In this document: piece by piece, positions 4,276-54,467 of the stretch
How positions within the stretch are numbered: position 1 is the stretch's first letter
Layout of the letters: every line of letters begins with the position of its first letter
Source: an uncultured Gammaproteobacteria bacterium
GTDB taxonomy: Bacteria > Pseudomonadota > Gammaproteobacteria > UBA9214
Reading direction: 5' to 3'
DNA: 64,000 bases
Assembly: GCA_963701505.1 (NCBI GenBank)
Contig: CAVOZZ010000009.1
Location: forward strand, 65,770 to 129,769
The notes under the pieces: generated by a model
What the model was told of the DNA's origin: nothing
Seen by the model: only the letters and a program-made list of their open reading frames with translations
The model's database searches: none
Position numbers and translations under genes: made by a program

Positions 4276-4658
4276 GGTGGCGTTGTCAGTCAATGGCATG
4301 GTTCCGCGGCTGTTTTATTCCGGTGCTGTCGCAGCAGCGCGGGTAGACAGGCACACCGTTATGGCTTGATCGGTGACAACCCCGACTACCCGCCGCTGGC
4401 TGTGGTGGTTCCCCGGTAACGGGGTTACGCTGCTGCTCGACTACGTCCAGCAGTTTATCAAAGGCCTCGATAAAAAGTCCCACACTCTCTGTGTGCAGCC
4501 TGTCCGCCCCATCACGGTGCCGCGTCACCCCCGATGAAGTTAATAAAAACGTAACATTCCCCCACTTTTACTTGAACAGGCAGCAGAGTAGACTTGCGCC
4601 GCAATGCTGTCACCCTCGATAAACCTGCCCCTGCAATTCCTCAACCTCTGGTTGACGC

Positions 4659-5118
4659 TTGCTGCTGATCTGGCTGATTGCCAACGGCACGCTGGCCACC
4701 GACACCGTGCTCACCGGCGTGGTGATCACCGCGGCCATCGCGCTGGCGTTCGCCGCCTATTCGCGCGTCTATAGCGTGATCCGCTGGTCGCCGCGGGTGA
4801 TCTACAATTACCTGCTTTACCTGGGCGTGTTTCTCCACGAACTGGTGAAGGCCAACCTTAACGTGATGCGGCTATGTGTTCAGCCGGCACATCGACATCC
4901 ACCCCGGCATCGTCGAGATCAAGACCCGCCTGGAGTCGCCCATCGGCCGCCTGGCACTGGCGAATTCCATCACGCTGACCCCGGGCACCCTGGTCGTGGA
5001 CATGCAGGGCGATTCGCTGTTCATCCACTGGATCAACGTCACCGCGACGGACCCGGTCGCGGCCACGCAGGCGATCGCCGGGCGCTTCGAGAAATACCTG
5101 AAGGTGATCTATGGCTGA
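4659..5118 (+). pseudogene. MrpE/MnhE-like antiporter subunit (MbxA-like), one frame change near 4866-4880
   Basis: ORF 4659..5129 (TTG start; N-terminal TM part ending HELVKANLNVMR) continues in ORF 4876..5118 (IDIHPGIVEIKTRLESPIGRLALANSITLTPGTLVVDM). This is typical MnhE. The stop overlaps the next start. Confidence 0.7.
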
Positions 5119-5371
5119 GATCGCCCTGAACATCGCTTTCGTGCTGATCTTCTTCAGCATCGTGTTCGGCATCATCCGTCTGGTCATCGGCCCCGACACG
5201 GTCGACCGGGTGGTCGCCGTCGACCTGCTGACCATCGTCGCCATCGCGGTGATCGCGCTGCTGGCACACATCGGCAACCGCTATATCTACCTCGATGTCG
5301 CCCTGGTCTACGGCCTGCTGAGTTTCCTCGGCGTGCTCGCGGTTGCCCGTTTCCTCGAAAAAGGCATCTAG
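5111..5371 (+). CDS. MrpF/MnhF-like subunit
   Basis: 86 aa, three TM segments. GPDTVDRVVAVDLL is the MnhF/PhaF signature region. The 8-nt start/stop overlap with the upstream gene suggests translational coupling. Confidence 0.8.
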   Translation: MAEIALNIAFVLIFFSIVFGIIRLVIGPDTVDRVVAVDLLTIVAIAVIALLAHIGNRYIYLDVALVYGLLSFLGVLAVARFLEKGI

Positions 5372-5393
5372 TCGCACAGGTAATTCACTGAAT

Positions 5394-5633
5394 ATGATCG
5401 TATTACTCACACTGCTGCTCTGTGGCGGCATCCTCATCAGCGGCCTGCTCGCCGTGCAGCTCGACAGCCTGGTCAGCGCGGTGATCAGCGCCGGCCTCGC
5501 CAGCCTGTTCGCTGCCGTGGTCTACGTGGTGCTGGCGGCGCCCGACGTTGCCATGACCGAGGCCTCGATCGGCTCGGGCCTGTCGACCATGATCTTTCTT
5601 TATGCCATCCGCAAGACGCGGGGCAAGGACTGA
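5394..5633 (+). CDS. small membrane subunit, MbhD/MrpB-N-terminal (DUF4040)-like
   Basis: ORF 5343..5633. The internal ATG at 5394 gives MIVLLTLLLCGGILISGL..., ~79 aa with 3 TM. The motif APDVAMTEASIGSGLSTMIF resembles the DUF4040 region of MnhB/MbhD. Confidence 0.6.
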   Translation: MIVLLTLLLCGGILISGLLAVQLDSLVSAVISAGLASLFAAVVYVVLAAPDVAMTEASIGSGLSTMIFLYAIRKTRGKD

Positions 5634-5636
5634 GCC

Positions 5637-5981
5637 ATGGGCGAGTTGATCGGCAGCCTGTTCCTGCTGGGTGGCTCGGTATTCCTGTTCTCGGCGGGTC
5701 TCGGCGTGCTGCGCATGCCGGACACCTATAACCGTATCCAGACCGGCACCAAGGCCACCACCCTGGGCACCATCCTGATCCTGATCGGTCTGGCCTTCCT
5801 GCACCCGGCCTGGACCTTCAAACTGATCATCCTGATCTTCTTCGTGATGCTTACCAACCCGGTGTCCTCGCACGCCCTGGCACGCGCCGCCCATGCCATC
5901 GGCACCGCAGAGACCGAGTCCACCGTGATCGACCAGCTGGAGGTCACCGCGAACGAAGACACCCGGGAGCAAGCGGAATGA
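5637..5981 (+). CDS. MrpG/MnhG-like subunit
   Basis: 114 aa. GVLRMPDTYNRIQTGTKATTLG is the classic MnhG/PhaG motif. Confidence 0.8.
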   Translation: MGELIGSLFLLGGSVFLFSAGLGVLRMPDTYNRIQTGTKATTLGTILILIGLAFLHPAWTFKLIILIFFVMLTNPVSSHALARAAHAIGTAETESTVIDQLEVTANEDTREQAE

Positions 5982-6015
5982 ACCGTGCAACGCCGCTGCC
6001 GGGTAGCGAGACCGT

Positions 6016-6756
6016 ATGATCAAGCGCATCGTCATCCTGCTGGTGCTGGTCATGCTGGCGATCATCTTTCTCGAGCTCGCGGCCAACTACAGCGAGAAAA
6101 CCTCGCTGTCACCACTGGGCCACTACTACGCCGAGCAGGGGCCATCGGAACTCGGCGCCGCCAACCTGGTGACTGCCGTGGTGGTCACCTACCGCGGCCT
6201 GGATACCCTGGGCGAGGTCACCGTGCTGTTCATCTCCGCTGCCGGTGTCGGCCTGCTGTTGCGCCGCACCCGGCGCACGGACGATGACGAAGATCTTGAA
6301 AAAGGCGACCGCGCCGAGGAAACCGCGGGCGCGCGCAAGCCCGCCAGTGAAATCGTCGAAACCGCCACCCAGCTGCTGCTACCGATGGTCATCCTGTTCG
6401 GCATCTACGTATTCCTGAACGGCCACCTGTCGCCCGGCGGCGGGTTCCAGGGCGGTGCCATCATCGCCTCCGGCACCATGTTCCTGTTGCTGGCCCTGCC
6501 CGAATCACACATCAGCCGCCTGATGATCGCCATGACCGAATCGCTCTCCGGCTTCAGCTACGTGGTCATCGGCGTGCTCGGCGTGCTGCTGGCAGGCGGT
6601 TTCCTCGACAACCGCATCATGGGCCTCGGCACCTACGGCAGTCTGTTCAGCGCCGGTGCCATACCGCTGATTTATGTGTTCGTCGGCATCAAGGTAGGCT
6701 TCGAACTCAGCGCGGTACTCGACCGCTTCCGCAAGGAGGACACGGGACCGTTATGA
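6016..6756 (+). CDS. MrpB/MnhB-like subunit (MbhE/F-like) with an acidic/basic linker
   Basis: 246 aa. Motifs NLVTAVVVTYRGLDTLGEVTVLF and GHLSPGGGFQGGAI are MnhB-domain signatures. The two halves are joined by a charged insert (RRTRRTDDDEDLEKGDRAEE). Confidence 0.75.
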   Translation: MIKRIVILLVLVMLAIIFLELAANYSEKTSLSPLGHYYAEQGPSELGAANLVTAVVVTYRGLDTLGEVTVLFISAAGVGLLLRRTRRTDDDEDLEKGDRAEETAGARKPASEIVETATQLLLPMVILFGIYVFLNGHLSPGGGFQGGAIIASGTMFLLLALPESHISRLMIAMTESLSGFSYVVIGVLGVLLAGGFLDNRIMGLGTYGSLFSAGAIPLIYVFVGIKVGFELSAVLDRFRKEDTGPL

Positions 6757-7133
6757 GTGTCCTCGCCGACATGCAGATTTCACTGATCGTGCTGTGCAGC
6801 GGCCTCGGCCTGGTCCTGATCGGGCTGTGGGGCATACTGACGCAACGCAATATCATTCGCATGATCATCGGCTTCTCGCTGCTGGATACCGGCATTCACA
6901 TGGTGATGGTATCCATCGGTTATGTCACCGGCGGCACCGCCCCCATCATCAACGACGCCGTGCCCATGGCCGAAGCCGTCAGCCGCGTCGTCGACCCGGT
7001 GCCGTCCGCGCTGGTGCTGACCGCCATCGTCATCGGCCTTGGCGTTACCGCCGTGATGCTGTCCTTCGCGGTACGCATGTACAGGGCACGCAGGACGCTG
7101 ATGATTGACGAGTTCACGGAGTCGAAATGGTAA
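6753..7133 (+). CDS. MrpC/MnhC (NuoK-like) subunit
   Basis: 126 aa, 3 TM. NIIRMIIGFSLLDTGIHMVMV is a NuoK/MnhC-type motif. Start and stop overlap both neighbours. Confidence 0.8.
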   Translation: MSVLADMQISLIVLCSGLGLVLIGLWGILTQRNIIRMIIGFSLLDTGIHMVMVSIGYVTGGTAPIINDAVPMAEAVSRVVDPVPSALVLTAIVIGLGVTAVMLSFAVRMYRARRTLMIDEFTESKW

Positions 7134-8440
7134 ACGCGCTGATGACAGAGGTACTGTTGCGGCCGCTGGGTATCTACGTGATCGCGCTCGGTGCGGGCTT
7201 CCTGATACCACTGTTTGACCGTGCACACCGCGGCTCGGCCATCCTGCTGTTCCTCGCGGCCCTCGCCGGCATGGTCGCCATTGCCGGCATCAACCTGCTG
7301 GCGATCCTGAACGGCGCAGCCGCCATCGAGATCGAAACCGCGGGCATTGCGCCGCCGTTTTCCATCAACCTGCGCTTCGGCCTGTATGAAGGCGGCTTTG
7401 TGCTTGCAGTCAACAGCATCGCGCTGCTGGGCGCCCTGCACTGGCTGCCGTCACTGCGGCAGCATGCCTCCGCGCTGTTGCTCTACCTCATCATGGTGAT
7501 GGGCATCAACGGCATGGTGATGACCCGCGACCTGTTCAACCTGTTCATTTTTATCGAGATTACCTCGATCGCCACCTACGCCCTGATCGGCATGGAGCGC
7601 AGCGGCGCGGTGCTCGCTGCCGGCTTCAAATACATCGTCGCGACCTCGGTGGCCTCGGCCTTCTTCCTGCTGGGCACGATCTTCCTGTATTACCTCACCG
7701 GTACGCTGAACATTGACGGCATGGTGGCACAGCGCGAGCTGATCAGTGGCCCGATCGGCTTCATCGCGACCCTGTTGCTGCTCACCAGCCTGCTGATCGA
7801 GCTCAAACCCTACCCCGCCAACGGCTGGGGACTGGACGTCTACGAGACGGCACCCGGCGGCATCGCCGCGCTGATCTCTGTCGGCGTCTCCGCCGGCGTG
7901 TTGTTCGCGTTGTTCAAGACACTGCCGCTGCTGGATGACTACCTGACGAGCATCGCCGTGGTCGGCGGCGCAACCTTCCTGGTCTCCAACCTGATCGGCC
8001 TGAAGCAGGACAACGCCAAACGCCTGCTCGGCTATTCCTCCATCGGCCAGATGGGCCTGCTGACACTGGCGCTGGCCGCGACGGCACAGCTTGGCAGCGA
8101 GTCACTGTTGCCGCTGATCGTGGGCGGCCTGTTCATCAATCATCTGCTGGCCAAGGCCGGGCTGTTCTGGCTGGCGGACGTGGTCAATCGCAAGACTACC
8201 CGGGACTGGTCGGTGCTCGCCGGGCGGCCCCTGCTGTTACTGGTGTTCGGTATCCTGCTGACCGCCCTGGTCGGTCTGCCACCTTTCCCCGGCTTCTGGG
8301 CCAAGTGGGTGCTGGTCATGGAACTCGCCACGGGTGGCCTGTACGGCTGGATTGCCGTGATCCTGCTGGGCTCGCTGCTGGAAGCCGCCTACCTGTTCCG
8401 CTGGTTTACGCAGGCGCTGGAGGCCCGGAAAACCGATGCC
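7127..8440 (+). CDS. MrpD/NuoM/N-type antiporter-like subunit 1 (MbxH-like); 3' end uncertain
   Basis: ORF 7127..8896. The first ~435 aa are a typical proton-conducting membrane transporter (FNLFIFIEITSIATYALI, LLGYSSIGQMG, PPFPGFWAKW). After ~8430 the reading becomes an Arg/Pro/Gly-rich tail that overlaps the next gene in another frame. The true stop has therefore been lost or shifted. Confidence 0.7.
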
Positions 8441-9818
8441 CCCGAGGCGCATCAGCCGCTGGAAACTGGCGCCCGTTGCCGTGGCCGCCCTGCTGCTGTT
8501 TGCCACCGGCTATGCCATGGCCATGCAACTCGAGAGCGACACCCTGGTCATGTTCCTGCCGCTGCTGGCCGGTGCCGCACTGTGGCTGCTGGACGGCCTG
8601 CCGGGCCGCCTGAAGAGCCTGCTGATGCTGGTGATAGTGGCCGCGGGCGGCGCCTGGCTGACGCTGGATCTCGAAGGCCTGAACCGTATCTTTGGCTTCA
8701 TCCTGGTCGGCGGCGGCGTGCTGGTGAGCCTCGCGACCCAGTACCGGGGCGATGCCCGCAAGGGCTTCTACCCGCTGCTGACCATCCTGCTGCTGTCGCT
8801 GGCGACACTGTTGTGCGCACACACCAGCCTGGCGTTCTTCTTCAGCTGGGAACTGATGACAGTGAGCTCCTACCTGCTGATCACCCTCGGCCGTAACGGC
8901 GTCAAGCCCTCACTGACCTACCTGCTGTTCTCGCTGGGTGCGGCCTATTGCATCCTTGCCGGTTTCGCCATCGCCTATGCGGCCACCGGCAGTCTTGAAC
9001 TGGCCGCACTCGGAGGCACGGGTGCGTCCACCGGCCTGGTATTCAGCCTGCTGGCGGCCGGCTTCCTCATCAAGACCGGCGCGCTCGGCGTGCATATCTG
9101 GGTGCCGGGCGCCTACGCGGAGGCCGACGACGACTTCAGCGCCTTGCTCTCCGCCGTGGTCAGCAAGGCCGCCATCTTTGGCCTGCTGCTGATTGCCGCA
9201 CAGCTCGGCGTGCGTTCCGACATCGGCCTCGACCCGGCCTACGTGCTCGGCTGGATCGGCATGCTTACCGCGACCTTCGGCGCGCTGATGGCCGTGTTCC
9301 AGGAAGACATCAAAAAACTGCTCGCCTACTCCAGCATGGGGCAGCTCGGCTATATCGTCACCGGCATCGCGCTGATGAGCCACCTCGGCTGGGTCTCCGC
9401 ACTGTACCTGACGGTGAACCACTTCCTCTTCAAGGGCATCCTGTTCCTCGCCGTCGCCGGCGTGGTACTGCGCACCAACCAGCGCTTCATGTACAAGATG
9501 GGTGGACTGATCAAGAACATGCCGTTCACCTTCGTCGCCACCATGATCGCCATCATCGCCATGTCCGGCGTGCCGCCGCTGACCGGTTTCGGCGGCAAGT
9601 GGCTGCTGTTCAACGCCATCATGGAAAAGGGCTGGTACTGGCTGGCCGCACTGGCGTTCTTCTCCAGCGCCGTCGCCTTCCTTTATATGTTCCGGCTGCT
9701 GCACACCGTCTTTCTCGGCCAGCGCAAGCTGGAGCATGCACAACTGCGCGAGGCGCCGGCGATCCTGCTGATTCCACAGTTCGTGCTGATCGGCATCATC
9801 ATGGTGTTTTCCGCCTAG
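8436..9818 (+). CDS. MrpD/NuoL-type antiporter-like subunit 2 (MbxH'-like)
   Basis: 460 aa. Motifs FFFSWELMTVSSYLLI, GVHIWVPGAYAEA, LLAYSSMGQLGYI and PPLTGFGGKW. It ends at TAG 9816-9818, which is in frame with the following ORF (see findings). Confidence 0.8.
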   Translation: MPPRRISRWKLAPVAVAALLLFATGYAMAMQLESDTLVMFLPLLAGAALWLLDGLPGRLKSLLMLVIVAAGGAWLTLDLEGLNRIFGFILVGGGVLVSLATQYRGDARKGFYPLLTILLLSLATLLCAHTSLAFFFSWELMTVSSYLLITLGRNGVKPSLTYLLFSLGAAYCILAGFAIAYAATGSLELAALGGTGASTGLVFSLLAAGFLIKTGALGVHIWVPGAYAEADDDFSALLSAVVSKAAIFGLLLIAAQLGVRSDIGLDPAYVLGWIGMLTATFGALMAVFQEDIKKLLAYSSMGQLGYIVTGIALMSHLGWVSALYLTVNHFLFKGILFLAVAGVVLRTNQRFMYKMGGLIKNMPFTFVATMIAIIAMSGVPPLTGFGGKWLLFNAIMEKGWYWLAALAFFSSAVAFLYMFRLLHTVFLGQRKLEHAQLREAPAILLIPQFVLIGIIMVFSA

Positions 9819-10286
9819 CCGAAACTGCTGCTCGAGCCGCTGTCGTCGGCCATCAGCCCGTGGCTGGCCGGCAACCTGGTGTGGGACGGCCTCTCGCTGC
9901 AGACCCATCTCGGCTACTGGAACGCACCCATGATCATGGGCGTCGTCGCCGGCGTGTGGATGGTGCCGCTGCTATTCCTGCTGCTGATGACGCTGACCCT
10001 GAAGATCCAGAAAGTCGGGCAGTTCAACATCGTGTTTGCCGCGGAGCGTCCGCATCGCCCGGAAGACACGCATTTCGCCTACAACTTCTTCGCGCACTAC
10101 GACCGGGCCCTCGGCATCCTGGTGCGGCCGCGCGCCACCGCTTTCTGGAAGTCCGTTGTCGAGTGGAGCCATTCCCTGGCCGCGTCCTTGCGGATTTTCT
10201 ATAACGGCAACGGCCAGACCTATGCACTGCATATCGTGATGTATCTGGTGGCGCTGTACCTGGTGAATGGAGGACTGCAGCTGTGA
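9819..10286 (+). CDS. either the C-terminal continuation of subunit 2 across an in-frame TAG, or a separate MbhI-like small membrane subunit (GTG 9879)
   Basis: Same frame as 8436..9818, with no further stop between 9819 and 9879. There are two or three TM segments (MIMGVVAGVWMVPLLFLLLMTL; IVMYLVALYLV). The stop overlaps the NuoH-like start. Confidence 0.55.
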   Translation, partial: PKLLLEPLSSAISPWLAGNLVWDGLSLQTHLGYWNAPMIMGVVAGVWMVPLLFLLLMTLTLKIQKVGQFNIVFAAERPHRPEDTHFAYNFFAHYDRALGILVRPRATAFWKSVVEWSHSLAASLRIFYNGNGQTYALHIVMYLVALYLVNGGLQL

Positions 10287-11209
10287 TTGCGGAATGGCTT
10301 GGCAGAATCGGTAATTTCAGCCTGACACTGCTGATCGTGGCCGTCTACGGACTGCTCGTGGGTGCCTTCATCGAACGCACCATCGCCAAGGTGCAGGGCC
10401 GCATCGGCATTCCCTACCGGCAACCGTTTATCAATATCCTGAAAACGCTGGTGAAGCGCACCGCCGTCAGTCACGGCATCATGTTCTACCTCGGGCCGGT
10501 GTTCCGCCTCGCCGGCGGCGTCGGTACGCTGGCCTTCATACCGGTGATCTACGGCAGCGACACCTTCGCGAATTTCAGCTACGCCGGCGACCTGTTCCTG
10601 GTGATCTACTTCATGTTCTTCGGCCAGCTCGGCATGGCGCTGGGCGCCGGCGAAAGCGGCCATCCCTACAGCGCCATCGGCATCGCCCGCGGCCTGTCGC
10701 AAATGACCGCCTACGAGGTGCCCTTCGCGCTGGCAGTGATCTCCATCGTCATCCAGTACGACACCCTGTCGATCACCGAGATCGTGGCCGCGCAGCAGGG
10801 CGGCTGGCAGCACTGGACGCTGTTCACCAACTGGGTGGCGACGCTGGCCGCGATGCTGGCATTTCTCGGCATGACCGGCTATTCGCCCTTCGACATCTTC
10901 CTGGCGCCGCAGGAGATACCGATTGGCCCGCCGACCGAGTTCCACAGCGCCTTCCTGTCGATGCTGCAGACCAACCGCGCCTTGTTCGGGGCCACCAAGC
11001 TGATCCTGTTCATGAACCTGTTTTTCGGCGGCGCCACCGGCTGGATCGAATTGATGATCAAAACCCTGGCAATCTACATGGTTGCAGTGGTCGTCGGTGT
11101 GGCGTTTCCGCGCTTCCGCGTCGACCAGTCGATCCGCTTCTTCTTCAAGTACCCGACACTCATCGGCATCGCGTCTATAGTGTATGTACAGATGGTAATC
11201 GCACCCTGA
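10283..11209 (+). CDS. NuoH-like membrane subunit (MbxM/MbhM/HyfC/CooK family)
   Basis: 308 aa, polytopic. Motifs IERTIAKVQGRIGIPYRQPFINILK and GESGHPYSAIGIARGLSQMTAYEVPFAL are NuoH/ND1-type. Confidence 0.85.
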   Translation: MIAEWLGRIGNFSLTLLIVAVYGLLVGAFIERTIAKVQGRIGIPYRQPFINILKTLVKRTAVSHGIMFYLGPVFRLAGGVGTLAFIPVIYGSDTFANFSYAGDLFLVIYFMFFGQLGMALGAGESGHPYSAIGIARGLSQMTAYEVPFALAVISIVIQYDTLSITEIVAAQQGGWQHWTLFTNWVATLAAMLAFLGMTGYSPFDIFLAPQEIPIGPPTEFHSAFLSMLQTNRALFGATKLILFMNLFFGGATGWIELMIKTLAIYMVAVVVGVAFPRFRVDQSIRFFFKYPTLIGIASIVYVQMVIAP

Positions 11210-11246
11210 AAACGCGGCGCGACATGCCGAGCGTGAGGACCTGACC

Positions 11247-11879
11247 ATGACAAAAGACCTGAGCACCGAAGCAACCCTGGAAAATGCCGGCTTATCCGTC
11301 GAGGACCGGCAGCTGTTCTCCAATGCGCGGCCGCGCGCCTATGAACCCTACCCGATCAAGGCGGTGGAGGATTTCGCCAACTGGGCGCGGGCGAATTCGC
11401 TGTGGATCCTGGCCTTCGGCACCGGCTGCTGCTCGATCGAGCTGCGCCCGCTGATGACGGCGCGCTTCGACGCCAGCCGCTTCGGTGTTGCCGGCCGGCC
11501 GACGCCGCGGCAGTCGTCGCTGTTCATCATCGGCGGCTACGTCTCGGTAAAAACGCTGAAGCGCATCGTGCGCAGCTACGAGCAGATGCAGGGGCCGAAA
11601 TTCATCATCGCGCTCGGCAGCTGTCCGGCCAACGGCGGCATGTACTTCGACAGCTACAACACCATCAACCAGTTCGACCTGTACCTGCCGGTGGACCTGT
11701 ACGTCACCGGCTGCATGCCGCGGCCGGAAGCGCTGCTCGGCGCCATCCTGGAACTGCAGGATGACATCAAGGCGGGCAAGTGTGACGGCGCCAACCGCTA
11801 TATCGAACACTTCGACGAATACAAGGCCAACCAGAAGAAGGTCATCAAGGACTGGAACATGCCGGATTACAACTGGTAA
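11247..11879 (+). CDS. NuoB-like [4Fe-4S] subunit (MbxJ / hydrogenase small-subunit-like)
   Basis: 210 aa. All four N2-type cluster Cys are present: GTGCCSIE (two), GSCPANGG, VTGCMPRPEAL. Confidence 0.9.
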   Translation: MTKDLSTEATLENAGLSVEDRQLFSNARPRAYEPYPIKAVEDFANWARANSLWILAFGTGCCSIELRPLMTARFDASRFGVAGRPTPRQSSLFIIGGYVSVKTLKRIVRSYEQMQGPKFIIALGSCPANGGMYFDSYNTINQFDLYLPVDLYVTGCMPRPEALLGAILELQDDIKAGKCDGANRYIEHFDEYKANQKKVIKDWNMPDYNW

Positions 11880-11914
11880 TCCCATGACACACGATCGAGC
11901 CCGGAAATACAATT

Positions 11915-12457
11915 ATGAGTGAACTGCTGGACAGACTGGTGCGCGATTTCGGTGTCACGGAGATCACCGAGCGCCTTCCGGCGATCACCACGCTGAAAGT
12001 GAGCAAGGAAAACGGCGAACGGCTGATCCGTGAACTGCGCGACCGCGAGGGCTTCACCCACCTGAATTTCATCGCCTGCACCGACTGGATCGAGGACGGC
12101 ATTTTCAGGCTGGTGTACATGCTGCACAACTACGACAGCAAACAGAACCTCGGCGTACACATCGACATCGACCGCGACAACGCCGAGATGACTTCCATCC
12201 ATACGCTGTGGGCGCAGGCCTGGACCTACCAGCGCGAACTGCGCGAGATGTACGGCATCCACTTTCCCGGCAGCCCGCGACTCGAGGAGAATTTCTGCCT
12301 CGAAGGCTGGGACGCAATGCCGCCGATGCGGCGTGATTTCGACACCGCGAAATACAGCGCGGAACGCTTCGGTCACCGCGAGGGCCGCGTCAGCCTGGTG
12401 CCGCGCGACCATATGAAGGTGCAGCTCTATCCGAATCGTGGAGGGGATAAGTCATGA
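11915..12457 (+). CDS. NuoC-like subunit (MbxK-like)
   Basis: 180 aa. Motifs FTHLNFIACTDW and TYQRELREMYGIHFPGSP are the NuoC/30 kDa family signature. Confidence 0.85.
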   Translation: MSELLDRLVRDFGVTEITERLPAITTLKVSKENGERLIRELRDREGFTHLNFIACTDWIEDGIFRLVYMLHNYDSKQNLGVHIDIDRDNAEMTSIHTLWAQAWTYQRELREMYGIHFPGSPRLEENFCLEGWDAMPPMRRDFDTAKYSAERFGHREGRVSLVPRDHMKVQLYPNRGGDKS

Positions 12458-13623
12458 CGTTATCAACCGGCCATTCCGCCGCGCTGGACTTCGCCCAGCC
12501 CGAACCGGTCGACCTGTCATCGGGTAAATACGTCAAGCTGTGGCAGGGTCCGCAGCATCCCGGCATCACCGGCAACATGTCGCTGGAACTGACACTGGAC
12601 GGCGACACCATCATCGAGTGCAAGACCCACGTCGGTTACCTGCACCGCGGCTTCGAGAAGCTGATGGAGCAGCGCAACTTTATCCAGAACTTCACCGTGG
12701 TGTGCCGCATCGCGGTTCCCGAACCGGCCTTCAACGAATACCTGTACGCGGCCGCGATCGAGGCGATCAGCGGCGTCGAGTCACCGCCGCGCGCGCAGTG
12801 GCTGCGCACGCTGAACCTCGAAATGATGCGCCTCGCCAGTTTCCTGATGTGGATCGGCGGCCAGGGCGGCGCCTTCGGCCAGTACACCGTGGCCAACTGG
12901 ACGCTCACCTACCGCGACTACGTGCTGGATCTGTTCGAGGAAATGACGGGCGCGCGCATCTACCACATGTACATGGTGCCCGGCGGCGTACGCGCCGGAC
13001 TGCCGGCTGGATTCGAGCAACGCATCCTCGAGCTGATGAACAACACCGACAAGCTGCTCGACCAGGTCGAGCGCGTGATGTACAACAACGTGGTGTTCAA
13101 GGCGCGCGCCAGGGGCCTCGGCGTGATTACCCCGGAACTGGTAGATCCGTACGGTGTGGTCGGTCCGAATGCGCGCGCCAGCGGTTTCCGCCGCGACCTG
13201 CGCAAGGACGAACCCTACCTGGTGTACGACCAGCTCGATTTCAGCGTCATCAGCGGCAGTGCCGGCGATGCCTACGAACGCGCCTGGCTGCGTTTGCAGG
13301 AAACCCGCCAGAGCATCAACCTGATCCGCCAGGTAATTGCCGGCGCACCGTCGGACGGTCCGTTCCAGGCAGACATGCCGAACTTGCTGCACTGGAAGGT
13401 GCCGGCCGGCGAGACCTACGTCAAGGCCGAGTGCACCCGCGGCGAATACGGCTACTACATGGTTACCGACGGCACCGAGATCGTGCGCCGCGTGCACGTG
13501 CGCGGTCCGAGCTACACCCATGCCATCGCATTGATGGAGCGCCTCGCGGTCGGCACCAACATCGCGGACATCGCCGGCCTGATGGTATCGCTGCACACCT
13601 ATCCGCCCGAGATTGAGAGGTAA
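12454..13623 (+). CDS. NuoD / [NiFe]-hydrogenase large-subunit-like catalytic subunit lacking the NiFe Cys ligand pairs (MbxL/Ehr-like)
   Basis: 389 aa. GPQHPGITGNMSLEL and GYLHRGFEKL are NuoD/group-4 motifs. The N-terminal RxCGxC position reads VVCRIAVPEP. The C-terminal DPCxxC position reads SLHTYPPEIER, with no Cys. Confidence 0.9.
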   Translation: MTLSTGHSAALDFAQPEPVDLSSGKYVKLWQGPQHPGITGNMSLELTLDGDTIIECKTHVGYLHRGFEKLMEQRNFIQNFTVVCRIAVPEPAFNEYLYAAAIEAISGVESPPRAQWLRTLNLEMMRLASFLMWIGGQGGAFGQYTVANWTLTYRDYVLDLFEEMTGARIYHMYMVPGGVRAGLPAGFEQRILELMNNTDKLLDQVERVMYNNVVFKARARGLGVITPELVDPYGVVGPNARASGFRRDLRKDEPYLVYDQLDFSVISGSAGDAYERAWLRLQETRQSINLIRQVIAGAPSDGPFQADMPNLLHWKVPAGETYVKAECTRGEYGYYMVTDGTEIVRRVHVRGPSYTHAIALMERLAVGTNIADIAGLMVSLHTYPPEIER

Positions 13624-13635
13624 GCAGTAAATATC

Positions 13636-15444
13636 ATGAGCCTGAAAGACCTGCTATCCCCGTTCTATGTCTGGCAACGCGCCTTCGAGAAACCCTATAC
13701 CTCCATCCGTCCGATCCAGGAGCGCCCCGGTGCGGCCGCCTATCGCGGCTTTCACATCAATATCAGCGAGGAATGCATCGGCTGCGGCACCTGCCACAAG
13801 ATCTGCCAGAACGACGCGATCGATATGGTCCGGGTCGAGGCATACGAAGGTCGCAGTGGCGACAGTGGCTTGCGCCCGCGCTTCGACTATGGCCGCTGCT
13901 GCTGGTGCGCCCTGTGCGTCGATATGTGTCCCGCCGGTTCCCTGCGCATGAGCAACGAGTACACCTGGATCACCAGCGACCCAACCACGTATCACTTCAC
14001 CGCGGGCGTTGAACACACCACCTGGCAGGAGAATCCGCTGGGCTACCGCCGCGCGGAAGGCTACCATCTCTACCCGCCCAAACGCATCGACATGGAGATG
14101 CGGCCACCGGCAGAGAGCGTACAGTCATTCGATGAAGTGGTGCTGGGCTACAGCGAGTCACAGGCGCTGCTGGAAGCCGACCGCTGCATCGAATGCGGCA
14201 TCTGCGTCGCCACCTGCCCGGCGCACATGGACGTTCCCGACTACATCCGCAGCATCCGTGACCGCGATTACGAGAAGGGTCTGCAGCTGATGTACCGCAC
14301 CAATCCCTTCCCCGCCACCTGCGGGCGCATCTGCACGCGCCGCTGCGAGTCGGTGTGCCCGGTTGGCATCCAGGGAGAACCGATCGCCATTCGCTGGCTG
14401 AAACGTTTCATCGTCGACCAGATCCAGCCGCAGGACTATGCGCGCATACTTGCCGACCAGAGCGGACACAGTGGCCGCCGCATCGCCATCATCGGCGCCG
14501 GCCCCGGTGGTCTGAGTGCCGCCTATTACCTGCGCAAGCAAGGCCACGCGGTGACGGTGTTCGAGGCGCAGGAAAGCGCCGGCGGCATGCTGCGCTACGG
14601 CGTGCCCAGCTACCGCCTGCCGGACGCGGATCTCGACAAGGACATCAATTACATCGTGTCACTCGGTGTGGACATCCGCTACAACACACGTGTCGGCAAG
14701 GACATCGCCTTCGAAGAACTGCTGCAGGACTACGATGCCCTGTTCCTGTCCACCGGCCTGTCGGTGCCCTCCAGCATGCGCATCCAGGGCGAGGACCATC
14801 CGCGCGTGCTGTCCGGCCTGCAGGTGCTTGCCGATGTCGCCAGCGGTCGCGACCCGGGCATCGGCCACAAGGTTGCCGTCATCGGCGGCGGCAACGTTGC
14901 CATGGACGCAGCACGGGTCGCGCGGCGTCTCGGCGCCGCTGTCACCATCCTCTACCGCCGTCGGATCGCCGACATGCCGGCGGATGTCGAGGAAATAAAC
15001 GAGTCACAGGAAGAAGGCTGCCGCATCGTCACCCAGGCGATCCCGGTTGAAATCATTGCGGCGGACAGCCCGCAACAGGTTGCGATCAAGTGGGGAGAAG
15101 CCGAAATGGTGCAGGACCCGAAAGGCGGCCGGCCACGCCCGGTGCTGCAGGAAGACAGGATGCATGTAGAAACTTACGACTGCATCGTCTCGGCCATCGG
15201 CCAAAGCAGCGACCTCGACTTCCTGTCAAAGGAGATACAGGACCAGCTGGCCATCGAGTGGGGCAAATTCACGCCGGGTGAATACCAGCACACATCGCTG
15301 GCGAAGATTTTCGCCGGCGGTGACGTCGCCAATCGCACCGCCGATGCCATCAGCGCCATCGAGGACGGCCATCATGCCGCGCGCGGCATCGACCGGTTCC
15401 TGAACCCGGATACCCGGATGCATACAGACGAGGAGGTGAACTGA
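13636..15444 (+). CDS. fusion protein: NuoI/MbxN-like 2x[4Fe-4S] ferredoxin domain + GltD/SudA/NfnB-like FAD/NAD(P)H oxidoreductase
   Basis: 602 aa. The N-terminus has CIGCGTCHKICQ and CCWCALCVDMCP. The GltD-type Fe-S region follows (CIECGICVATCP...CGRICTRRCESVCP). Then come two Rossmann motifs, IAIIGAGPGGLSAAYYL and VAVIGGGNVAMDAAR, and GGDV near the C-terminus. Confidence 0.85.
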   Translation: MSLKDLLSPFYVWQRAFEKPYTSIRPIQERPGAAAYRGFHINISEECIGCGTCHKICQNDAIDMVRVEAYEGRSGDSGLRPRFDYGRCCWCALCVDMCPAGSLRMSNEYTWITSDPTTYHFTAGVEHTTWQENPLGYRRAEGYHLYPPKRIDMEMRPPAESVQSFDEVVLGYSESQALLEADRCIECGICVATCPAHMDVPDYIRSIRDRDYEKGLQLMYRTNPFPATCGRICTRRCESVCPVGIQGEPIAIRWLKRFIVDQIQPQDYARILADQSGHSGRRIAIIGAGPGGLSAAYYLRKQGHAVTVFEAQESAGGMLRYGVPSYRLPDADLDKDINYIVSLGVDIRYNTRVGKDIAFEELLQDYDALFLSTGLSVPSSMRIQGEDHPRVLSGLQVLADVASGRDPGIGHKVAVIGGGNVAMDAARVARRLGAAVTILYRRRIADMPADVEEINESQEEGCRIVTQAIPVEIIAADSPQQVAIKWGEAEMVQDPKGGRPRPVLQEDRMHVETYDCIVSAIGQSSDLDFLSKEIQDQLAIEWGKFTPGEYQHTSLAKIFAGGDVANRTADAISAIEDGHHAARGIDRFLNPDTRMHTDEEVN

Positions 15445-15445
15445 C

Positions 15446-15892
15446 ATGAACAGCGTGGATGAAATACTCGACTATGCCATTGACCAGGAACAGCAGGCCG
15501 CTGACTTCTACGCGGAGCTGGCCGGCCGCGCCGAAAAGGCCGGCATGAAAGATATCCTGCTGGATTTCTCCGCAGAGGAACAAAGCCACAAGCAACGACT
15601 GCTGGCGGTAAAGGCCGGTGACCACGAGCTGACACCGGAACAGCAGGTGCTGGACCTGAAGATCTCCGACTACCTTGTCGAGGTCGGCGCCAGCGCCAAC
15701 ATCTCCTACCAGGACGCCCTGATCGTCGCCATGAAACGTGAACGTGCTGCCTTCCAGCTGTACAGCGACATGGCCGCAAAGGTTCCGGAGGGCCATCTGA
15801 AGGAAGTCCTGCAGGGCCTCGCCAAGGAAGAGGCCAAGCACAAGCTGTTCTTTGAATCCGAGTACGACGAGCGCGTCTTGATGGATAACTAG
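15446..15892 (+). CDS. rubrerythrin/ferritin-like diiron four-helix-bundle protein (no rubredoxin domain)
   Basis: 148 aa. Two E-x-x-H motifs (EEQSH, EEAKH), each preceded by a helix carrying a conserved Glu (ADFYAEL, MKRERAAF). The start lies 1 nt after the upstream stop. Confidence 0.7.
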   Translation: MNSVDEILDYAIDQEQQAADFYAELAGRAEKAGMKDILLDFSAEEQSHKQRLLAVKAGDHELTPEQQVLDLKISDYLVEVGASANISYQDALIVAMKRERAAFQLYSDMAAKVPEGHLKEVLQGLAKEEAKHKLFFESEYDERVLMDN

Positions 15893-16075
15893 TGCTCTTC
15901 CCGCCTGATACCAACGGTATGCTGAACTGTAGTTAAACTGGGCACCAAATTTTTTTACTGGCCACGGAAGCACACGGAATTACACGGAAAAAAGTATTTT
16001 ATGGTTTTTATTCTTCCGTGTTTTCCGTGTGTTTTCGTGGCAATCCTGTCCGTCTTTATCAGATTGAGGCAGTGC
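15890..16075. repeat. left copy of a ~190 bp inverted repeat flanking ppsA; contains the palindromic CACGGAA-rich core (15961-16041)
   Basis: Aligns by eye at roughly three-quarters identity with the reverse complement of 18600-18794. Matching stretches include tagtgctctt..., gctgaac, gggcacc(a/c)aattt, ccacggaagcacacgg and atcctgtccgtctttat(c/t)agattgaggcagt. Confidence 0.8.
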
Positions 16076-16158
16076 TCCGCAGGCTGGGCTTCGTACCTCA
16101 GCCCAACCTGCAAATGACTTTTTTCTGTATTTTCTAAATACACCCGGGGGGCAGACCA

Positions 16159-18582
16159 ATGCAGCAGTTCGAGTACGTACGCCGTTTTCGGGAGCTCGGC
16201 ATCGACGACGTGTCGCTGGTCGGCGGCAAGAATGCCTCACTGGGGGAGATGTACCAGGCCCTGTCGGGTGAAGGCGTCAGGGTTCCCAACGGCTTTGCCA
16301 CCACGGCACAGGCCTATCGCGACTACCTGACACACAACCAACTGGAGGCACCCATTCAGCAGGCGCTGGCACAGCTGGATGTCGATGATGTCGATGCGCT
16401 GGCCAAAACCGGCGCGCAGATACGCGGCTGGATCGTCGACGCGGAACTGCCGCCACAGCTGGTCAGCGAGATTACCGCTGCCTACGCGGAGATGACCGCA
16501 GAATACGGCGTTGATACCGATGTTGCCGTGCGCAGTTCGGCAACCGCCGAAGACCTGCCGGATGCCTCCTTTGCCGGCCAGCAGGAGACCTATCTGAATA
16601 TCTGCGGCACGGAGCACCTGCTGCGTACCTGCAAGCGGGTGCTGGCCTCGCTGTTCACGGACCGCGCCATTCATTACCGTGTCGACAAGGGCTTTGAGCA
16701 CATGAGCATTGCGCTGTCCATCGGAGTGCAGAAGATGGTGCGTTCCGACCTTGGTGCCTCGGGTGTGATGTTTACCCTCGACACGGAGAGCGGTTTCCGC
16801 GACGTGGTCATGGTCACCTCGGCCTACGGCCTGGGCGAGAATGTCGTACAGGGCGCGGTCAATCCGGACGAGTTCCTGGTGTTCAAGCCGACCCTGGAAC
16901 AGGAAAAGCGGCCCATTATCCGTCGCCACCTCGGTGAAAAGGCCATCAAGATGATCTACACAAAGGATCCGGTCACGGCCGAGGCCACCCGCAACGTCGC
17001 GGTGAAAAAGTCGGAACAGCAACGCTTCTCGATCAGCGATGACGAGGTGCTGCAGCTGGCGCGCTACGCCACCATCATCGAGCGTCACTATTCCGCACAT
17101 GCCGGCAAGCCGCGCCCCATGGATATTGAATGGGCAAAGGACGGCATCAGCGGTGAACTGTTTATCGTGCAGGCGCGCCCGGAAACCGTGCACTCGATGC
17201 GCAGCGATGCCTTCCAGGAGATCTACAGCATCAAGGAACGCGGCAAGGTACTGACACAGGGCAAGAGTGTCGGCGCCAAGGTGGGTGCCGGGCGGGCACG
17301 CATTATCCTCGAAGCGGCACACATGCATGACCTGCTGCCGGGCGAGGTGCTGGTCACCGATATTACCGACCCGGACTGGGAACCGGTCATGAAGATCGCC
17401 AGCGCCATTGTCACCAATCGTGGCGGCCGTGTCTGCCATGCGGCGATCGTAGCACGCGAACTCGGTATCCCGGCCGTGGTCGGCAGCGTTGACGCCACCC
17501 ATGACATCCCGGACGGCCAGGAGGTCACGGTCTCCTGTGTCGAGGGGGATACCGGTTTTGTCTATGAGGGCCTGCTGCCCTACTCCAGTGAACGGGTTGA
17601 CCTGGGCGGACTGCAGCGCCCGCAAACCCGCATTATGCTGATCGTCGGCAACCCGGTGCAGGCGCTGGAATTTGCGGCCTTCCCGAATGACGGCGTCGGT
17701 CTGGCGCGACTGGAATTCATCATCAACAACAGCATCGGCATTCACCCGCGTGCCATCCTGGAACACACCCGCCTGGACGAGGATATCCAGCAACAGATTG
17801 CCAGCCGCTCCGCAGGTTATGCCAGTCCACGCGATTTCTACATCAACCGGCTGGCCGAGGGCGTCGGCACCATTGCCGCGGCCTTCTATCCAAAACCGGT
17901 GACCGCTCGCCTCAGCGATTTCAAGTCAAATGAATACGCCGCCCTGCTCGGCGGTGAAGGTTTCGAGCCGCGCGAGGAAAACCCCATGATCGGCTTTCGC
18001 GGTGCCAGCCGCTATCACTCGGATGCCTTTGCAGAGTGTTTTGCACTGGAATGCGCCGCCATGAAGAAGGTGCGTGAGGAAATGGGGCTCGATAACCTGG
18101 AATTGATGATTCCCTTTGCCCGCACGGTCGGGGAAGTACAGCAGGTACTGGAGGTGATGTCACGGCAGGGCCTGCGGCGGGGAGAAAACGGACTGAAGAT
18201 CAAGCTGATGTGCGAGATCCCGGCCAATGCGCTACTCGCCAGCCAGTTTCTCGAACACTGTGACGGTTTCTCCATCGGTTCCAACGACCTGACCCAGCTG
18301 ACGCTCGGTGTGGACCGCGACTCCGGGTTGCTGAGCGGTTATGACGAACGCAACGAGGCCGTCACTGCCCTGATGGGGATGGCCATCAAGGCCTGCCAGG
18401 CAGCCGGCAAGTTTGTCGGTATCTGCGGGCAGGCGCCCTCCGATTTTCCGGAGGTTACCCGCTGGCTGGTGCAACAGGGGATCGAGTCCATTTCACTCAA
18501 CCCGGACAGTATTCTGAAGATGACCGGGGTCGTGCTGGAAATAGAACGCGAACTGCACCGGGGCAACAGCGACAGCCCTTGA
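16159..18582 (+). CDS. ppsA: phosphoenolpyruvate synthase (pyruvate, water dikinase)
   Basis: Uninterrupted 807 aa ORF. Motifs VGGKNASLGEMY (ATP-grasp N-terminus), TNRGGRVCHAAIVARELGIPAVVG (phosphohistidine domain) and the C-terminal PEP-utilising domain GFSIGSNDLTQL. Confidence 0.95.
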   Translation: MQQFEYVRRFRELGIDDVSLVGGKNASLGEMYQALSGEGVRVPNGFATTAQAYRDYLTHNQLEAPIQQALAQLDVDDVDALAKTGAQIRGWIVDAELPPQLVSEITAAYAEMTAEYGVDTDVAVRSSATAEDLPDASFAGQQETYLNICGTEHLLRTCKRVLASLFTDRAIHYRVDKGFEHMSIALSIGVQKMVRSDLGASGVMFTLDTESGFRDVVMVTSAYGLGENVVQGAVNPDEFLVFKPTLEQEKRPIIRRHLGEKAIKMIYTKDPVTAEATRNVAVKKSEQQRFSISDDEVLQLARYATIIERHYSAHAGKPRPMDIEWAKDGISGELFIVQARPETVHSMRSDAFQEIYSIKERGKVLTQGKSVGAKVGAGRARIILEAAHMHDLLPGEVLVTDITDPDWEPVMKIASAIVTNRGGRVCHAAIVARELGIPAVVGSVDATHDIPDGQEVTVSCVEGDTGFVYEGLLPYSSERVDLGGLQRPQTRIMLIVGNPVQALEFAAFPNDGVGLARLEFIINNSIGIHPRAILEHTRLDEDIQQQIASRSAGYASPRDFYINRLAEGVGTIAAAFYPKPVTARLSDFKSNEYAALLGGEGFEPREENPMIGFRGASRYHSDAFAECFALECAAMKKVREEMGLDNLELMIPFARTVGEVQQVLEVMSRQGLRRGENGLKIKLMCEIPANALLASQFLEHCDGFSIGSNDLTQLTLGVDRDSGLLSGYDERNEAVTALMGMAIKACQAAGKFVGICGQAPSDFPEVTRWLVQQGIESISLNPDSILKMTGVVLEIERELHRGNSDSP

Positions 18583-18810: not shown

Positions 18811-19809
18811 GTATTGCGCCTTGTAGTTTTCCAGGATCTTGATGTAGTTGGCGCGCTCGAAGGCGCCGGGATTGAGGCAGTTGACCTGGCTCATGGAGCC
18901 TCTTCAGCTGGGCCACGGAATCGTACTGCCTTGCCTCCATCCAGTCCTGCAGGCCTGTCCACCAGGGTGCGTGAGAAAGCCGATGCCGTTGCGCAGCATG
19001 CCGGAGGTGGTCATGACGGCATCCGCGCCGGCCAGCAGGTACTTGATGAGTTCCAGCGGGCTGTGCACGCCGGTGGTGGCGGCGAGCGAGGCGTTGATGC
19101 GGCCGTGCAGCACGCCGATCCACAGCAGCGGCAGGCGGATCTCGGCGGGCGTGCTGAGTTTCAGGTCGGTGATGACCTCCATTTCGTCCAGGTCCAGGTC
19201 CGGCTGGTAGAAGCGGTTGAACAGCACCAGCGCGTCGGCGCCGGCCTCGTCGAATTGCCGCGCCATGTTGCCGGTGGCGCTGAAGAAGGGGCTGAGTTTC
19301 ATGGCCACCGGGATGGAGACCGCCGCCTTCACCGCCTTGAGCACATCCAGGTAGCGCTGCTCGACCTCGCGCCCGTCCATGTAGAGGTTGGCGGGGATGT
19401 AGTAGGCGTTCAGTTCGATGCCGCTGGCGCCGGCATCCTGCATCAGGCGGGCGGTGTCCACCCAGCCCTCGTTGGTGATGCCGTTGAGGCTGCCGATGAC
19501 CGGGATGTCCACCGCCTCGGTGGCACGCCGCAGCAGGTTCAGGTATTCGTCCGGCCCGGTCTCGTAGTCCTCGAACTCCGGAAAGTAACTCAGCGACTCG
19601 GCATAGCTCTCGCTGCCCGAGGTGATCAGGTGCTCGATGGCCGCATTCTCGTGCTTGATCTGTTCCTCGAACAGCGAAAACATGACCACCGCCGCGGCGC
19701 CGGCATCCTCCATGCGCCTGAAGTTGTCGAGCTTCTCCGACAGGGGCGAGGCGGAGGCGACGACCGGGTTCTTCAGTTCCAGCCCCATGTAGGTGGTGCG
19801 CAGGTCCAT
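18811..19809 (-). pseudogene. dihydroorotate dehydrogenase-like (class 1 DHOD/DPD FMN-domain-like) protein, C-terminus disrupted by two frame changes
   Basis: ORF 18904..19809 is a TIM-barrel DHOD-like sequence (MGLELKNPVVASASPLS, GIELNAYYIP, VAMKLSPFF, LVLFNRFYQPDLD). The C-terminus continues in two other frames ([17 protein letters not shown], then [31 protein letters not shown]-stop at 18811-18813). Confidence 0.8.
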
Positions 19810-19837
19810 GGCGTTATCCTCTGTTATTCAGTTTCGC

Positions 19838-25141
<5,304 letters not shown>

Positions 25142-28484: not shown

Positions 28485-28626
28485 CCATGCATACGGCGGG
28501 CATCAGCGGCCACCGTGGCAGCGGTCTGCGATTTTGCCGAGCCCGGGCAAAAAATACTGTGCGGGTAAATTACACTGTAGAATACGCAACATTCACTCTA
28601 ATGACCCAGCGATCGACACCACCCGT

Positions 28627-30081: not shown

Positions 30082-30179
30082 GACTGATCACCCGCAGCCG
30101 GGTGCGGATGCACCCTGCACTGAGCAATGCTCTGCCGGTACGGCGTCCTGCCGAAACATCCCGGGAACACCGGCGCAAC

Positions 30180-34415: not shown

Positions 34416-34416
34416 C

Positions 34417-48335: not shown

Positions 48336-48648
48336 GAGACTCCTTAACGTTGTCGCTTTTTGAAAATTGTTTTCATGCTCACGTGCATGCCTGCTAACTG
48401 CTTGAACGCGCACGCACTCCGACCTGCTGTGGGGTGGCATACAATACCCCTTTGGCCACGATTTTCAAACCAGTAATATCTTGTCGTTAATAAAACCAGT
48501 TTATCCCAAAAATATTCGCCCTGATGAACGTCAACCGATTGTTATTATTAATATAATTCTCCATTGATACATCTGAATACGGTAATTTAATCATGCGCCT
48601 ACCCCTGTATTAGCGGGGCTTCTGCAGGCGCCTGCAACCTCGGCCACT

Positions 48649-54455: not shown

Positions 54456-54467
54456 TCCTGACGCGCG

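Follow-up and report, generated by a model that had tools for sequence, protein, structure and literature searches.

Gene content of the operon

The stretch of DNA analysed here, which we call the window, is 64,000 nucleotides long and comes from an uncultured gammaproteobacterium (UBA9214 in the GTDB; contig CAVOZZ010000009.1 of assembly GCA_963701505.1, positions 65,770 to 129,769 of the forward strand). Between 4604 and 15892, on the plus strand, it holds a compact run of co-directional open reading frames (ORFs) for Mrp-type antiporter subunits and for NuoH-, NuoB-, NuoC-, NuoD- and NuoI-like proteins (Table 1). To judge from their similarity to known subunits, these genes very probably encode a bacterial complex of the Mbx/MBS (membrane-bound sulfane sulfur reductase) family, in the energy-converting hydrogenase-related class of the complex I superfamily. 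Subunit identities were assigned by Pfam searches with every ORF, supplemented by NCBIfam models, and the Pfam E-values for the operon subunits (5e-10 to 7e-67) are well past chance. These searches bear out the subunit inventory and gene order given in a preliminary description of the locus, which had placed the start of the operon at 4659; the real start is the ATG at 4604. Stop and start codons do overlap, as had been noted, by 4-8 bases at four junctions (6753/6756, 7127/7133, 10283/10286 and 12454/12457), an arrangement typical of translationally coupled subunits. The true start of the MbhD-like gene is probably the ATG near 5394, given that the protein has 80-100 amino acids (aa) in relatives (gene calls in loci L033 and L034). 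On the plus strand, no useful promoter or terminator signal emerged from scans of 4250-4750 and 15800-16250.

This copy of the operon carries four lesions: an extra T at 4660 and an extra G at 4871, both in the MrpE gene, and an extra G at 8447 and a TAC/TAT to TAG change at 9816-9818, both in the gene for a fused pump. We located them by DNA alignment with four close relatives whose NuoI-like fusion protein, described below, is 88-93% identical to that of the window; the MrpE insertions are seen in alignments to loci L002-L005 and L033. Removing the three extra bases and reverting the stop codon yields a 170-aa MrpE, as in L033, and a single ORF of 1052 aa at 7127-10286, both of the length found in intact relatives. 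Indeed, the antiporter-like genes form one fused ORF, of 1052-1079 aa, in six scanned relatives and in the public gene calls for two loci (L033 and L034). The preliminary description was thus right about the co-directional run and wrong about its count of 14 genes: the supposed pair of MrpD genes and the ORF at 9879-10286 are one gene in intact relatives, so that the intact operon has 13. Its statement that the block from 10283 to 15892 is free of disruptions is correct.

The last gene, left unnamed in the earlier inventory, encodes a rubrerythrin-like protein with ExxH motifs at residues 45 and 129 and without the C-terminal rubredoxin domain of classical members. It lies 3' of the fusion gene in every gammaproteobacterial locus with downstream sequence, and also in Thermosipho. 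The NCBIfam model NF009413, which describes a ferritin-like domain fused to a GltD-like protein, gives a weak match (1e-4). We regard it as a conserved accessory protein, either a scavenger of peroxide or O2 or a docked subunit.

Table 1. Features of the window, with the operon genes first; E-values for PDB chains are given for the best match and, where noted, the next best
Feature	Position	Strand	Evidence and remarks	PDB matches
MrpE-like subunit	4604..5118	+	Pfam MNHE 5e-10 on intact middle piece; 170 aa once repaired; two +1 insertions	
MrpF-like subunit	5111..5371	+	Pfam MrpF_PhaF 5e-18; 76-95% identity across 20+ loci	
MbhD-like subunit	5343..5633	+	Pfam MbhD 2.5e-18	
MrpG-like subunit	5637..5981	+	Pfam PhaG_MnhG_YufB 7e-26	
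MbhE + MrpB-like subunit	6016..6756	+	Pfam MnhB 1.5e-21, MbhE 1.7e-10	
MrpC/NuoK-like subunit	6753..7133	+	Pfam Oxidored_q2 1.3e-23	
Fused MbsH-MbsH' antiporter-like double pump	7127..10286	+	Two Proton_antipo_M modules; 1052 aa once repaired	N-terminal half: MbsH (6u8y_H) 8e-47; C-terminal half: MbsH' (6u8y_X) residues 55-614, 3e-64
MbsM/NuoH-like membrane anchor	10283..11209	+	Pfam NADHdh 3e-47	MbsM (6u8y_M) 2e-41; next MbhM 1e-15
MbsJ/NuoB-like proximal [4Fe-4S] subunit	11247..11879	+	Pfam Oxidored_q6	MbsJ (6u8y_J) 5e-59; next NDH-1/complex I ~1e-38, MbhJ 1e-25
MbsK/NuoC-like subunit	11915..12457	+	Pfam Complex1_30kDa 7e-25	
MbsL/NuoD-like subunit	12454..13623	+	Pfam Complex1_49kDa	MbsL (6u8y_L) 8e-92; next Nqo4 9e-67, MbhL 6e-38, HycE 2e-25
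NuoI-like + NfnB/SudA/GltD-like fusion, 602 aa	13636..15444	+	NuoI-type Fer4 dicluster, Fer4_20, Pyr_redox_2	NuoI-like domain: MbsN (6u8y_N) 2e-17
Rubrerythrin-like protein (predicted di-iron four-helix bundle), 148 aa	15446..15892	+	Pfam Rubrerythrin 9e-12; last operon gene	
Nicotinamide-site dichotomy	13636-15444, residues 438-443	+	Compared with P0154, P0156-P0162	
RuBisCO/AprA-like/Sat/TauE group	41892-43310, 44541-46524, 47118-48440, 48599-49441	-		
Frame-broken regions elsewhere (examples)	2194-4299 (-), 19824-21873 (-), 25878-28484 (+), 28534-30350 (+), 34222-35854 (+), 44541-46524 (-), 51982-55225 (+)		Split or fused ORFs	

Family placement and the former active site

We placed the complex by searching all PDB chains and comparing scores. 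The MBS of Pyrococcus furiosus (PDB 6u8y), formerly called Mbx, is the top match for every core subunit (chains L, J, M, H, X and N), in agreement with the original proposal of an Mrp-linked complex of the Mbh/Mbx(MBS) type that is neither complex I nor a hydrogenase. The 13-subunit logic is the same in both, with an Mrp module, two antiporter-like pumps, a C-terminal extension on MbsH', an MbsM anchor and a J/K/L/N arm, and neither has a NiFe site or the quinone ligands of complex I. The second antiporter-like subunit of MBS carries a C-terminal extension consisting of transmembrane helix (TMH) 15, a helix HL and TMH16 (PMC7684303). Our alignment of the fused pump to chain X runs to residue 614 of 618, that is, through the C-terminus of MbsH', and the tail of the fused pump is accordingly predicted to form the same TMH15-HL-TMH16 element. 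Of the residues named for the charged axis and pump sites in the MBS structure paper, most are kept (MbsH E138, E219 and K393; MbsH' E128, K217, K248 and K399; MbsM D196, E203 and E211); the first His of the pair in transmembrane segment 11 is kept in neither antiporter-like module. The motif RIxVPEP, whose VPEP part follows the former NiFe site, is common to MbsL and the NuoD-like protein.

The two complexes also differ in several respects. MbsN is a free, ferredoxin-accepting subunit in P. furiosus, whereas its counterpart here is fused to a putative NADPH flavoprotein; MbsH and MbsH' are products of separate genes in P. furiosus and are fused here; the rubrerythrin-like gene is an addition; and P. 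furiosus is a hyperthermophilic sulfur reducer, whereas the present host is a mesophilic sulfur oxidiser. Complex I (NDH-1) shares with the operon homologues of NuoH, NuoB, NuoC, NuoD, NuoI, NuoK and the antiporter-like subunits, together with tandem cysteines in the NuoB-like subunit of the subclade to which the window belongs. By contrast, the operon lacks NuoE/F/G, NuoA and NuoJ, has an Mrp-type membrane arm and no quinone ligands, and is far less similar to complex I than to MBS. The absence of NuoEFG claimed in the preliminary description holds for about 10 kb on either side of the operon and for the loci of four relatives with gene calls. We therefore rejected assignment to complex I, on the grounds of the missing NuoEFG, the missing ligands and the weaker similarity. 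Public annotations nonetheless name the NuoD-like protein "NADH-quinone oxidoreductase subunit D" and the fusion "glutamate synthase (NADPH/NADH) small chain", and the NCBIfam NuoD model NF004739 scores the former at 398 bits, above its cut-off of 360; mis-annotation as complex I is systematic.

To map the NiFe positions onto the NuoD-like protein we used MbsL (C85 and C385) and Nqo4, in which residues 86 and 403 correspond to the first and third NiFe ligands (PMC4758237). All four positions are occupied by residues other than cysteine (A87, E90, Y383 and E386), and the RxCGxC and DPCxxC motifs read R85-I-A-V-P-E90 and H-T-Y383-P-P-E386. The loss of the NiFe cysteine pairs reported in the preliminary description is therefore real, and it extends to close homologues: all 23 aligned gammaproteobacterial proteins share VVCRIAVPEP and [TNS]YPPEIER, and none has a NiFe cysteine. 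Since the same residues recur in 23 independent assemblies, we rejected a local sequence artefact as the cause. The quinone ligands H38 and Y87 of Nqo4 are replaced by T39 and V88, as in MBS. Two other cysteines of the NuoD-like protein, C84 and C327, are conserved in the gammaproteobacterial and spirochaete proteins and absent from MbsL. C84 (in VVC-RIA) immediately precedes the Arg of what was the RxCGxC motif, and C327 stands two residues ahead of the Arg in an ECTRGE motif. Both flank the former NiFe site, and together they might make up a redox-active pair of thiols close to the proximal cluster.

In MBS, polysulfide is reduced at a proximal cluster held by three cysteines (MbsJ C28, C93 and C123), which leaves an open iron, and mutagenesis has shown C25 of MbsJ and C85/C385 of MbsL to be dispensable for its catalysis (PMC7684303). 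Cysteines C61, C126 and C156 of the NuoB-like subunit are equivalent to the three ligands. Instead of the C25-x-x-C28 of MbsJ, the NuoB-like subunit has Gly at the position of C25 and, within this subclade, an extra adjacent cysteine, C62 (GTGCCSIE), which is the pattern of cluster N2 in complex I. Orthologues of a sister subclade, about 83% identical, read GTGCGAIE and have exactly three cysteines (loci L007-L009 and L019-L030), so the fourth cysteine is dispensable within the orthologue group. This alternation of CC and CG fits an MBS-like three-Cys cluster; in the window's own protein C61, C62, C126 and C156 are all candidate ligands.

A pattern scan of species-representative genomes recovered 29 loci, all from metagenome-assembled genomes (MAGs) of Gammaproteobacteria, which carry labels such as Ectothiorhodospiraceae, Thiotrichales/Thiotrichaceae and Arenicellales. 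Wherever the flanking sequence is long enough (20+ loci), the gene order is the same, with the rubrerythrin-like gene last. Among uncultured sulfur oxidisers of the Gammaproteobacteria from marine and sediment habitats the family is common. In an exhaustive HMMER search, full-length fusions fell into about 11 clusters at 50% identity; the members with names are from Thermosipho melanesiensis, a Spirochaetaceae MAG and Candidatus Hydrothermae/WOR-3. When clustered at 90% identity, the fusions at least 77% identical to the query make up more than 120 clusters. With the Thermosipho and spirochaete loci added to the 29 from MAGs, the operon is conserved as a unit. At the spirochaete locus (L032, 12112-14540), and there only, a pair of NfnA-like and NfnB-like genes follows the operon in place of the rubrerythrin-like gene.

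The architecture is not new, contrary to what the preliminary description implied. "Mbx-like" operons of Thermotoga and proteobacteria, with a gltD-type subunit in place of NuoI and a terminal rubrerythrin, were described by Degli Esposti in 2015 (PMC4758237); expression of mbxA in Thermotoga maritima rises 4.4-fold with elemental sulfur (S0), and its MBX is predicted to be a sulfur reductase (PMC9431562). A full-length NCBIfam model of the fusion also exists already (NF010590). For the Riftia symbiont a "putative Mrp-Mbx complex" has been discussed, which is expressed together with the reductive tricarboxylic acid (rTCA) cycle (PMC11636981); that it has the GltD fusion could not be confirmed. 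The 2015 description is comparative-genomic rather than biochemical, and our literature searches turned up no biochemical or structural work on a bacterial complex of the fusion type. The operon in the window belongs to this "mbx-like" GltD-fusion subfamily, and is a further instance of a described, biochemically uncharacterised group of Mbx/MBS-like complexes, in a lesion-ridden assembly.

Comparison with Thermosipho melanesiensis (locus L031) brings out what is particular to the gammaproteobacterial clade. Both have the Mrp genes, two MrpD-like modules, NuoH/B/C/D-like genes, the NuoI-GltD fusion (45% identical) and the terminal rubrerythrin-like gene. In Thermosipho, however, MrpG precedes MbhD, the MrpD-like genes are separate (450 and 614 aa), and the nicotinamide site has the NADH-type sequence SLE with a 9-residue insertion rather than YRR. 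Among carriers of the fusion there is a graded series of vestigial cysteines: Thermosipho retains both MbsL C85/C385 and MbsJ C25/C28, the spirochaete only the equivalent of C85, and the gammaproteobacteria none, with Ala and Tyr in place of the C85 and C385 that P. furiosus MbsL still has. From Thermosipho through the spirochaete to the gammaproteobacteria the last hydrogenase cysteines are thus lost stepwise, and a complex I-type tandem cysteine appears in one subclade. Given that C85 and C385 are not needed for catalysis by MBS, we treat the vestigial cysteines as a descriptive rather than a functional feature. What is new here amounts to small points: the fusion of MbsH and MbsH' in the gammaproteobacterial clade, the total loss of vestigial NiFe cysteines, and the CC/CG and YRR/SLE dichotomies.

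The NuoI-GltD fusion and its predicted nucleotide

The fusion of a NuoI-like ferredoxin to a GltD/SudA-like FAD/NAD(P)H module, singled out in the preliminary description, is real and uninterrupted, and has matches in Pfam, NCBIfam and the PDB. Residues 1 to ~120 form an MbsN/NuoI-like domain with two [4Fe-4S] clusters (residues 6-112 match 6u8y_N), and residues ~150 to 602 an NfnB/SudA/GltD-like module with two further [4Fe-4S] clusters, FAD and a putative NADPH site (residues 150-591 match NfnI-L, 5jca_L, at 2.5e-83 and GltD at 5e-53; Pfam Fer4_20 5e-29, Pyr_redox_2 2e-31). NF010590 spans the full fusion with 686 bits, under its cut-off of 946. The search of PDB chains found none with a NuoI-GltD fusion. 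An identical 602-aa protein (100%) occurs on an independent metagenome contig, beside B-, C- and D-like genes and the rubrerythrin-like gene. Across 14 diverse fusions the 16 cysteines for four [4Fe-4S] clusters are invariant, among them Cys184-241 of the flavoprotein part, and the FAD motif GxGxxG (at 285) and the nicotinamide motif GGGNVAMD (at 416) are conserved.

The C-terminal 450 residues share with NfnAB, SudAB and GltD the fold family of two [4Fe-4S] clusters, FAD and NADPH, with all cluster cysteines and both dinucleotide motifs. Unlike those enzymes, the module is fused to a NuoI-type ferredoxin within a membrane complex, and no NfnA/SudB or GltB partner subunit is encoded in the operon; Nfn-like bifurcation is therefore not expected. 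The end of strand beta2 in the nicotinamide-binding domain divides the fusions in two: LYRR-R occurs in the clusters from gammaproteobacteria and the spirochaete and in some others (LYRRR at 438 in the window), whereas the Thermosipho group has SLE or CLE followed by a 9-residue insert. By the usual rule for Rossmann folds, Arg at this point accommodates the 2'-phosphate of NADPH and an acidic residue indicates NAD. We therefore infer NADPH for the window and NADH for the Thermotogae, and on this reading of the fold NADPH is likely to be the cytoplasmic substrate.

A second, separate GltD/NfnB-like protein (23426-25354; Fer4_20 and Pyr_redox_2), about 35% identical to the flavoprotein part of the fusion, adjoins a PFOR-like gene (EKR and Fer4 pieces) in the region 19800-25354 on the minus strand. 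The two may constitute an NADPH-linked pyruvate:ferredoxin module.

Proposed function and alternatives

The window encodes the large subunit of RuBisCO, ATP sulfurylase (Sat), AprA-like pieces and a TauE-type exporter, confirming the suggestion that the host is a sulfur-oxidising autotroph, which uses the Calvin-Benson-Bassham (CBB) cycle; it probably stores sulfur. Observed in the operon are a complete Mrp-type Na+/H+ module, a fused double pump, an MbsM-like anchor, an MbsJ/K/L-like arm and an extended MbsN-like subunit. We propose, taking the second substrate by analogy with MBS, that the complex is a reversible, ion-translocating NADPH:sulfane-sulfur (polysulfide) oxidoreductase; to this best explanation as a whole we would give a probability of roughly 0.55. 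Electrons would pass between NADPH and FAD, the two [4Fe-4S] clusters of the GltD-like domain and the two of the NuoI-like domain, and from there to the proximal [4Fe-4S] cluster in the NuoB-like subunit. The proximal cluster would exchange them with the substrate in a chamber where the NuoD-, NuoB- and NuoH-like subunits meet the MbsH' loop, and, as in MBS, turnover there would drive both pumps together with the Mrp module. The whole process would be reversible, and the reverse electron flow suggested in the preliminary description is conceivable.

Of the two substrates, the sulfur compound is the more tentative. We prefer sulfane sulfur (polysulfide or persulfide), with somewhat less than even confidence, because of the analogy with MBS and because the host oxidises, and probably stores, sulfur; we also count in its favour the three-Cys orthologues of the sister subclade and the induction of T. 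maritima mbxA by S0. At standard potentials, the transfer of electrons from NADPH to polysulfide spans ~50-60 mV, or ~10-12 kJ per two electrons. This is close to the 12 kJ/mol quoted for the membrane-bound hydrogenase (MBH), so either direction would be thermodynamically accessible. The operon is flanked by genes for glycogen and sugar breakdown, namely GlgX, GlgP, pyruvate kinase (PK) and PpsA here, and PPDK, alpha-amylase, phosphoglucomutase (PGM) and the NADPH-forming 6-phosphogluconate dehydrogenase in relatives. These neighbours fit a role in which a sulfur-storing autotroph under anoxia could use its sulfur store as a sink for the NADPH that glycogen breakdown yields.

Several points weigh against this proposal. 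A span of ~50-60 mV is small for a complex with two pumps; the equivalents of MbsH K250, MbsM E104 and MbsM E193 are not conserved; and the Cys61-Cys62 tandem may leave the proximal cluster fully ligated, without the open iron proposed for catalysis by MBS. The association with flanking genes is loose, glycogen and PpsA neighbours being common only to the closest relative (L002), and other relatives have different sugar-metabolism neighbours. This copy bears four inactivating lesions, and we found in the literature no measured activity of any fusion-type complex.

If ion translocation is indeed coupled to electron transfer between NADPH and sulfane sulfur, this would explain how sulfur-storing autotrophs conserve energy on their sulfur reserves in darkness or when O2 is lacking, and would make NADPH a fourth type of donor for complex I-like machines. 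A bolder extension, which we think unlikely, is that the complex supplies a missing connection in respiration, joining the pool of pyridine nucleotides to zero-valent sulfur inside the cell, as an ion-pumping reductase in the forward direction and a direct reductant of NADP+ in reverse. Running forward, it would let sulfur-storing bacteria respire their own sulfur globules during anoxic glycogen fermentation; in reverse, an ion gradient would push electrons from sulfide or polysulfide to NADP+, bypassing reverse electron flow at the level of quinones. In a second reading of this speculative kind, the conserved, putatively di-iron protein would serve as a high-potential outlet for the NfnB-type flavin.

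Among the alternatives the strongest, though still improbable in our view, is an ion-translocating ferredoxin:NADP+ oxidoreductase, Rnf-like in function, as in the original "Mbx" model. In reverse, such a complex would use an ion gradient to drive NADPH-dependent reduction of ferredoxin, feeding CO2 fixation by enzymes of the PFOR/OGOR type. Degli Esposti proposed this activity for the gltD-type operons (PMC4758237), PFOR-like and PEP synthase/PPDK genes lie just downstream in the window, the closest structural relatives of the flavoprotein domain are ferredoxin-linked enzymes of the NfnB type, and the rTCA cycle with which the Mrp-Mbx complex of the Riftia symbiont is co-expressed needs reduced ferredoxin. 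In P. furiosus, however, the same model gave way to direct reduction of polysulfide. Moreover, coupling in all solved relatives depends on the proximal-cluster chamber, and it is not known how a reaction confined to the distal end of the peripheral arm could drive the pumps; the NfnB-like [4Fe-4S] end that meets ferredoxin in Nfn is here probably wired to the NuoI-like domain; and the window shows a CBB autotroph, with RuBisCO and no rTCA genes seen there.

A different kind of objection is that the copy in the window is a decaying pseudogene cluster that has lost its membrane arm and keeps at most its soluble arm. All four lesions fall in membrane-arm genes, the block at 10283-15892 is intact, and one of the four is no indel but a nonsense substitution. 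Frame breaks are found across the whole window, however, roughly one in every 4-5 kb and so as densely as in the operon itself, and they also hit unrelated and housekeeping genes: other split or chimeric genes include a LolC/E-like permease, glycogen phosphorylase, pyruvate kinase, PFOR, a chimera of SLT, epimerase and CCA-type parts, GlgX and the AprA-like gene. At that rate chance alone would leave a block of 5.6 kb clean in about 30% of cases (Poisson estimate), and the broken operon genes, lesions aside, are 89-96% identical at the protein level to those of intact relatives. Because the breaks are window-wide, the lesions are best read as errors of assembly or sequencing, or at most as genome-wide decay; sequence errors are most likely, and the lesions do not count as evidence for a selective loss of the membrane arm. 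We judge pseudogenisation specific to the operon to be decidedly unlikely.

Slightly less probable again is an NAD(P)H:quinone oxidoreductase, in effect an alternative complex I with specificity for NADPH, which could also work backwards and pass electrons from quinol to NADP+; reverse electron flow is what the preliminary description found attractive in a sulfur-oxidising autotroph. Its driving force would suit a two-pump complex, and the tandem CC typical of cluster N2 and the score of the NuoD-like protein above the NF004739 cut-off both speak for it. The tandem is not conserved, however, among orthologues that are 83% identical overall, all subunits are much nearer to MBS than to complex I, and the membrane arm is of the Mrp type with MrpE/F/G. 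Quinone as a substrate is further weakened by the T39/V88 pair in place of the ligands, shared with MBS, which is not a quinone user. Lastly, homology of all subunits to Mbh might suggest a group 4 [NiFe]-hydrogenase, with H2 evolved or consumed at the expense or gain of NAD(P)H. This reading is refuted for practical purposes by the absence of the four metal-ligating cysteines here and in all 23 relatives, and the match to MbhL is far weaker than that to MbsL (6e-38 versus 8e-92).

Just upstream of the glycogen debranching gene, at 1022-1996 on the minus strand, lies a gene whose product joins a membrane domain of the VTT (DedA) type to a rhodanese domain and could be a sulfur-transfer or sulfur-transport protein.

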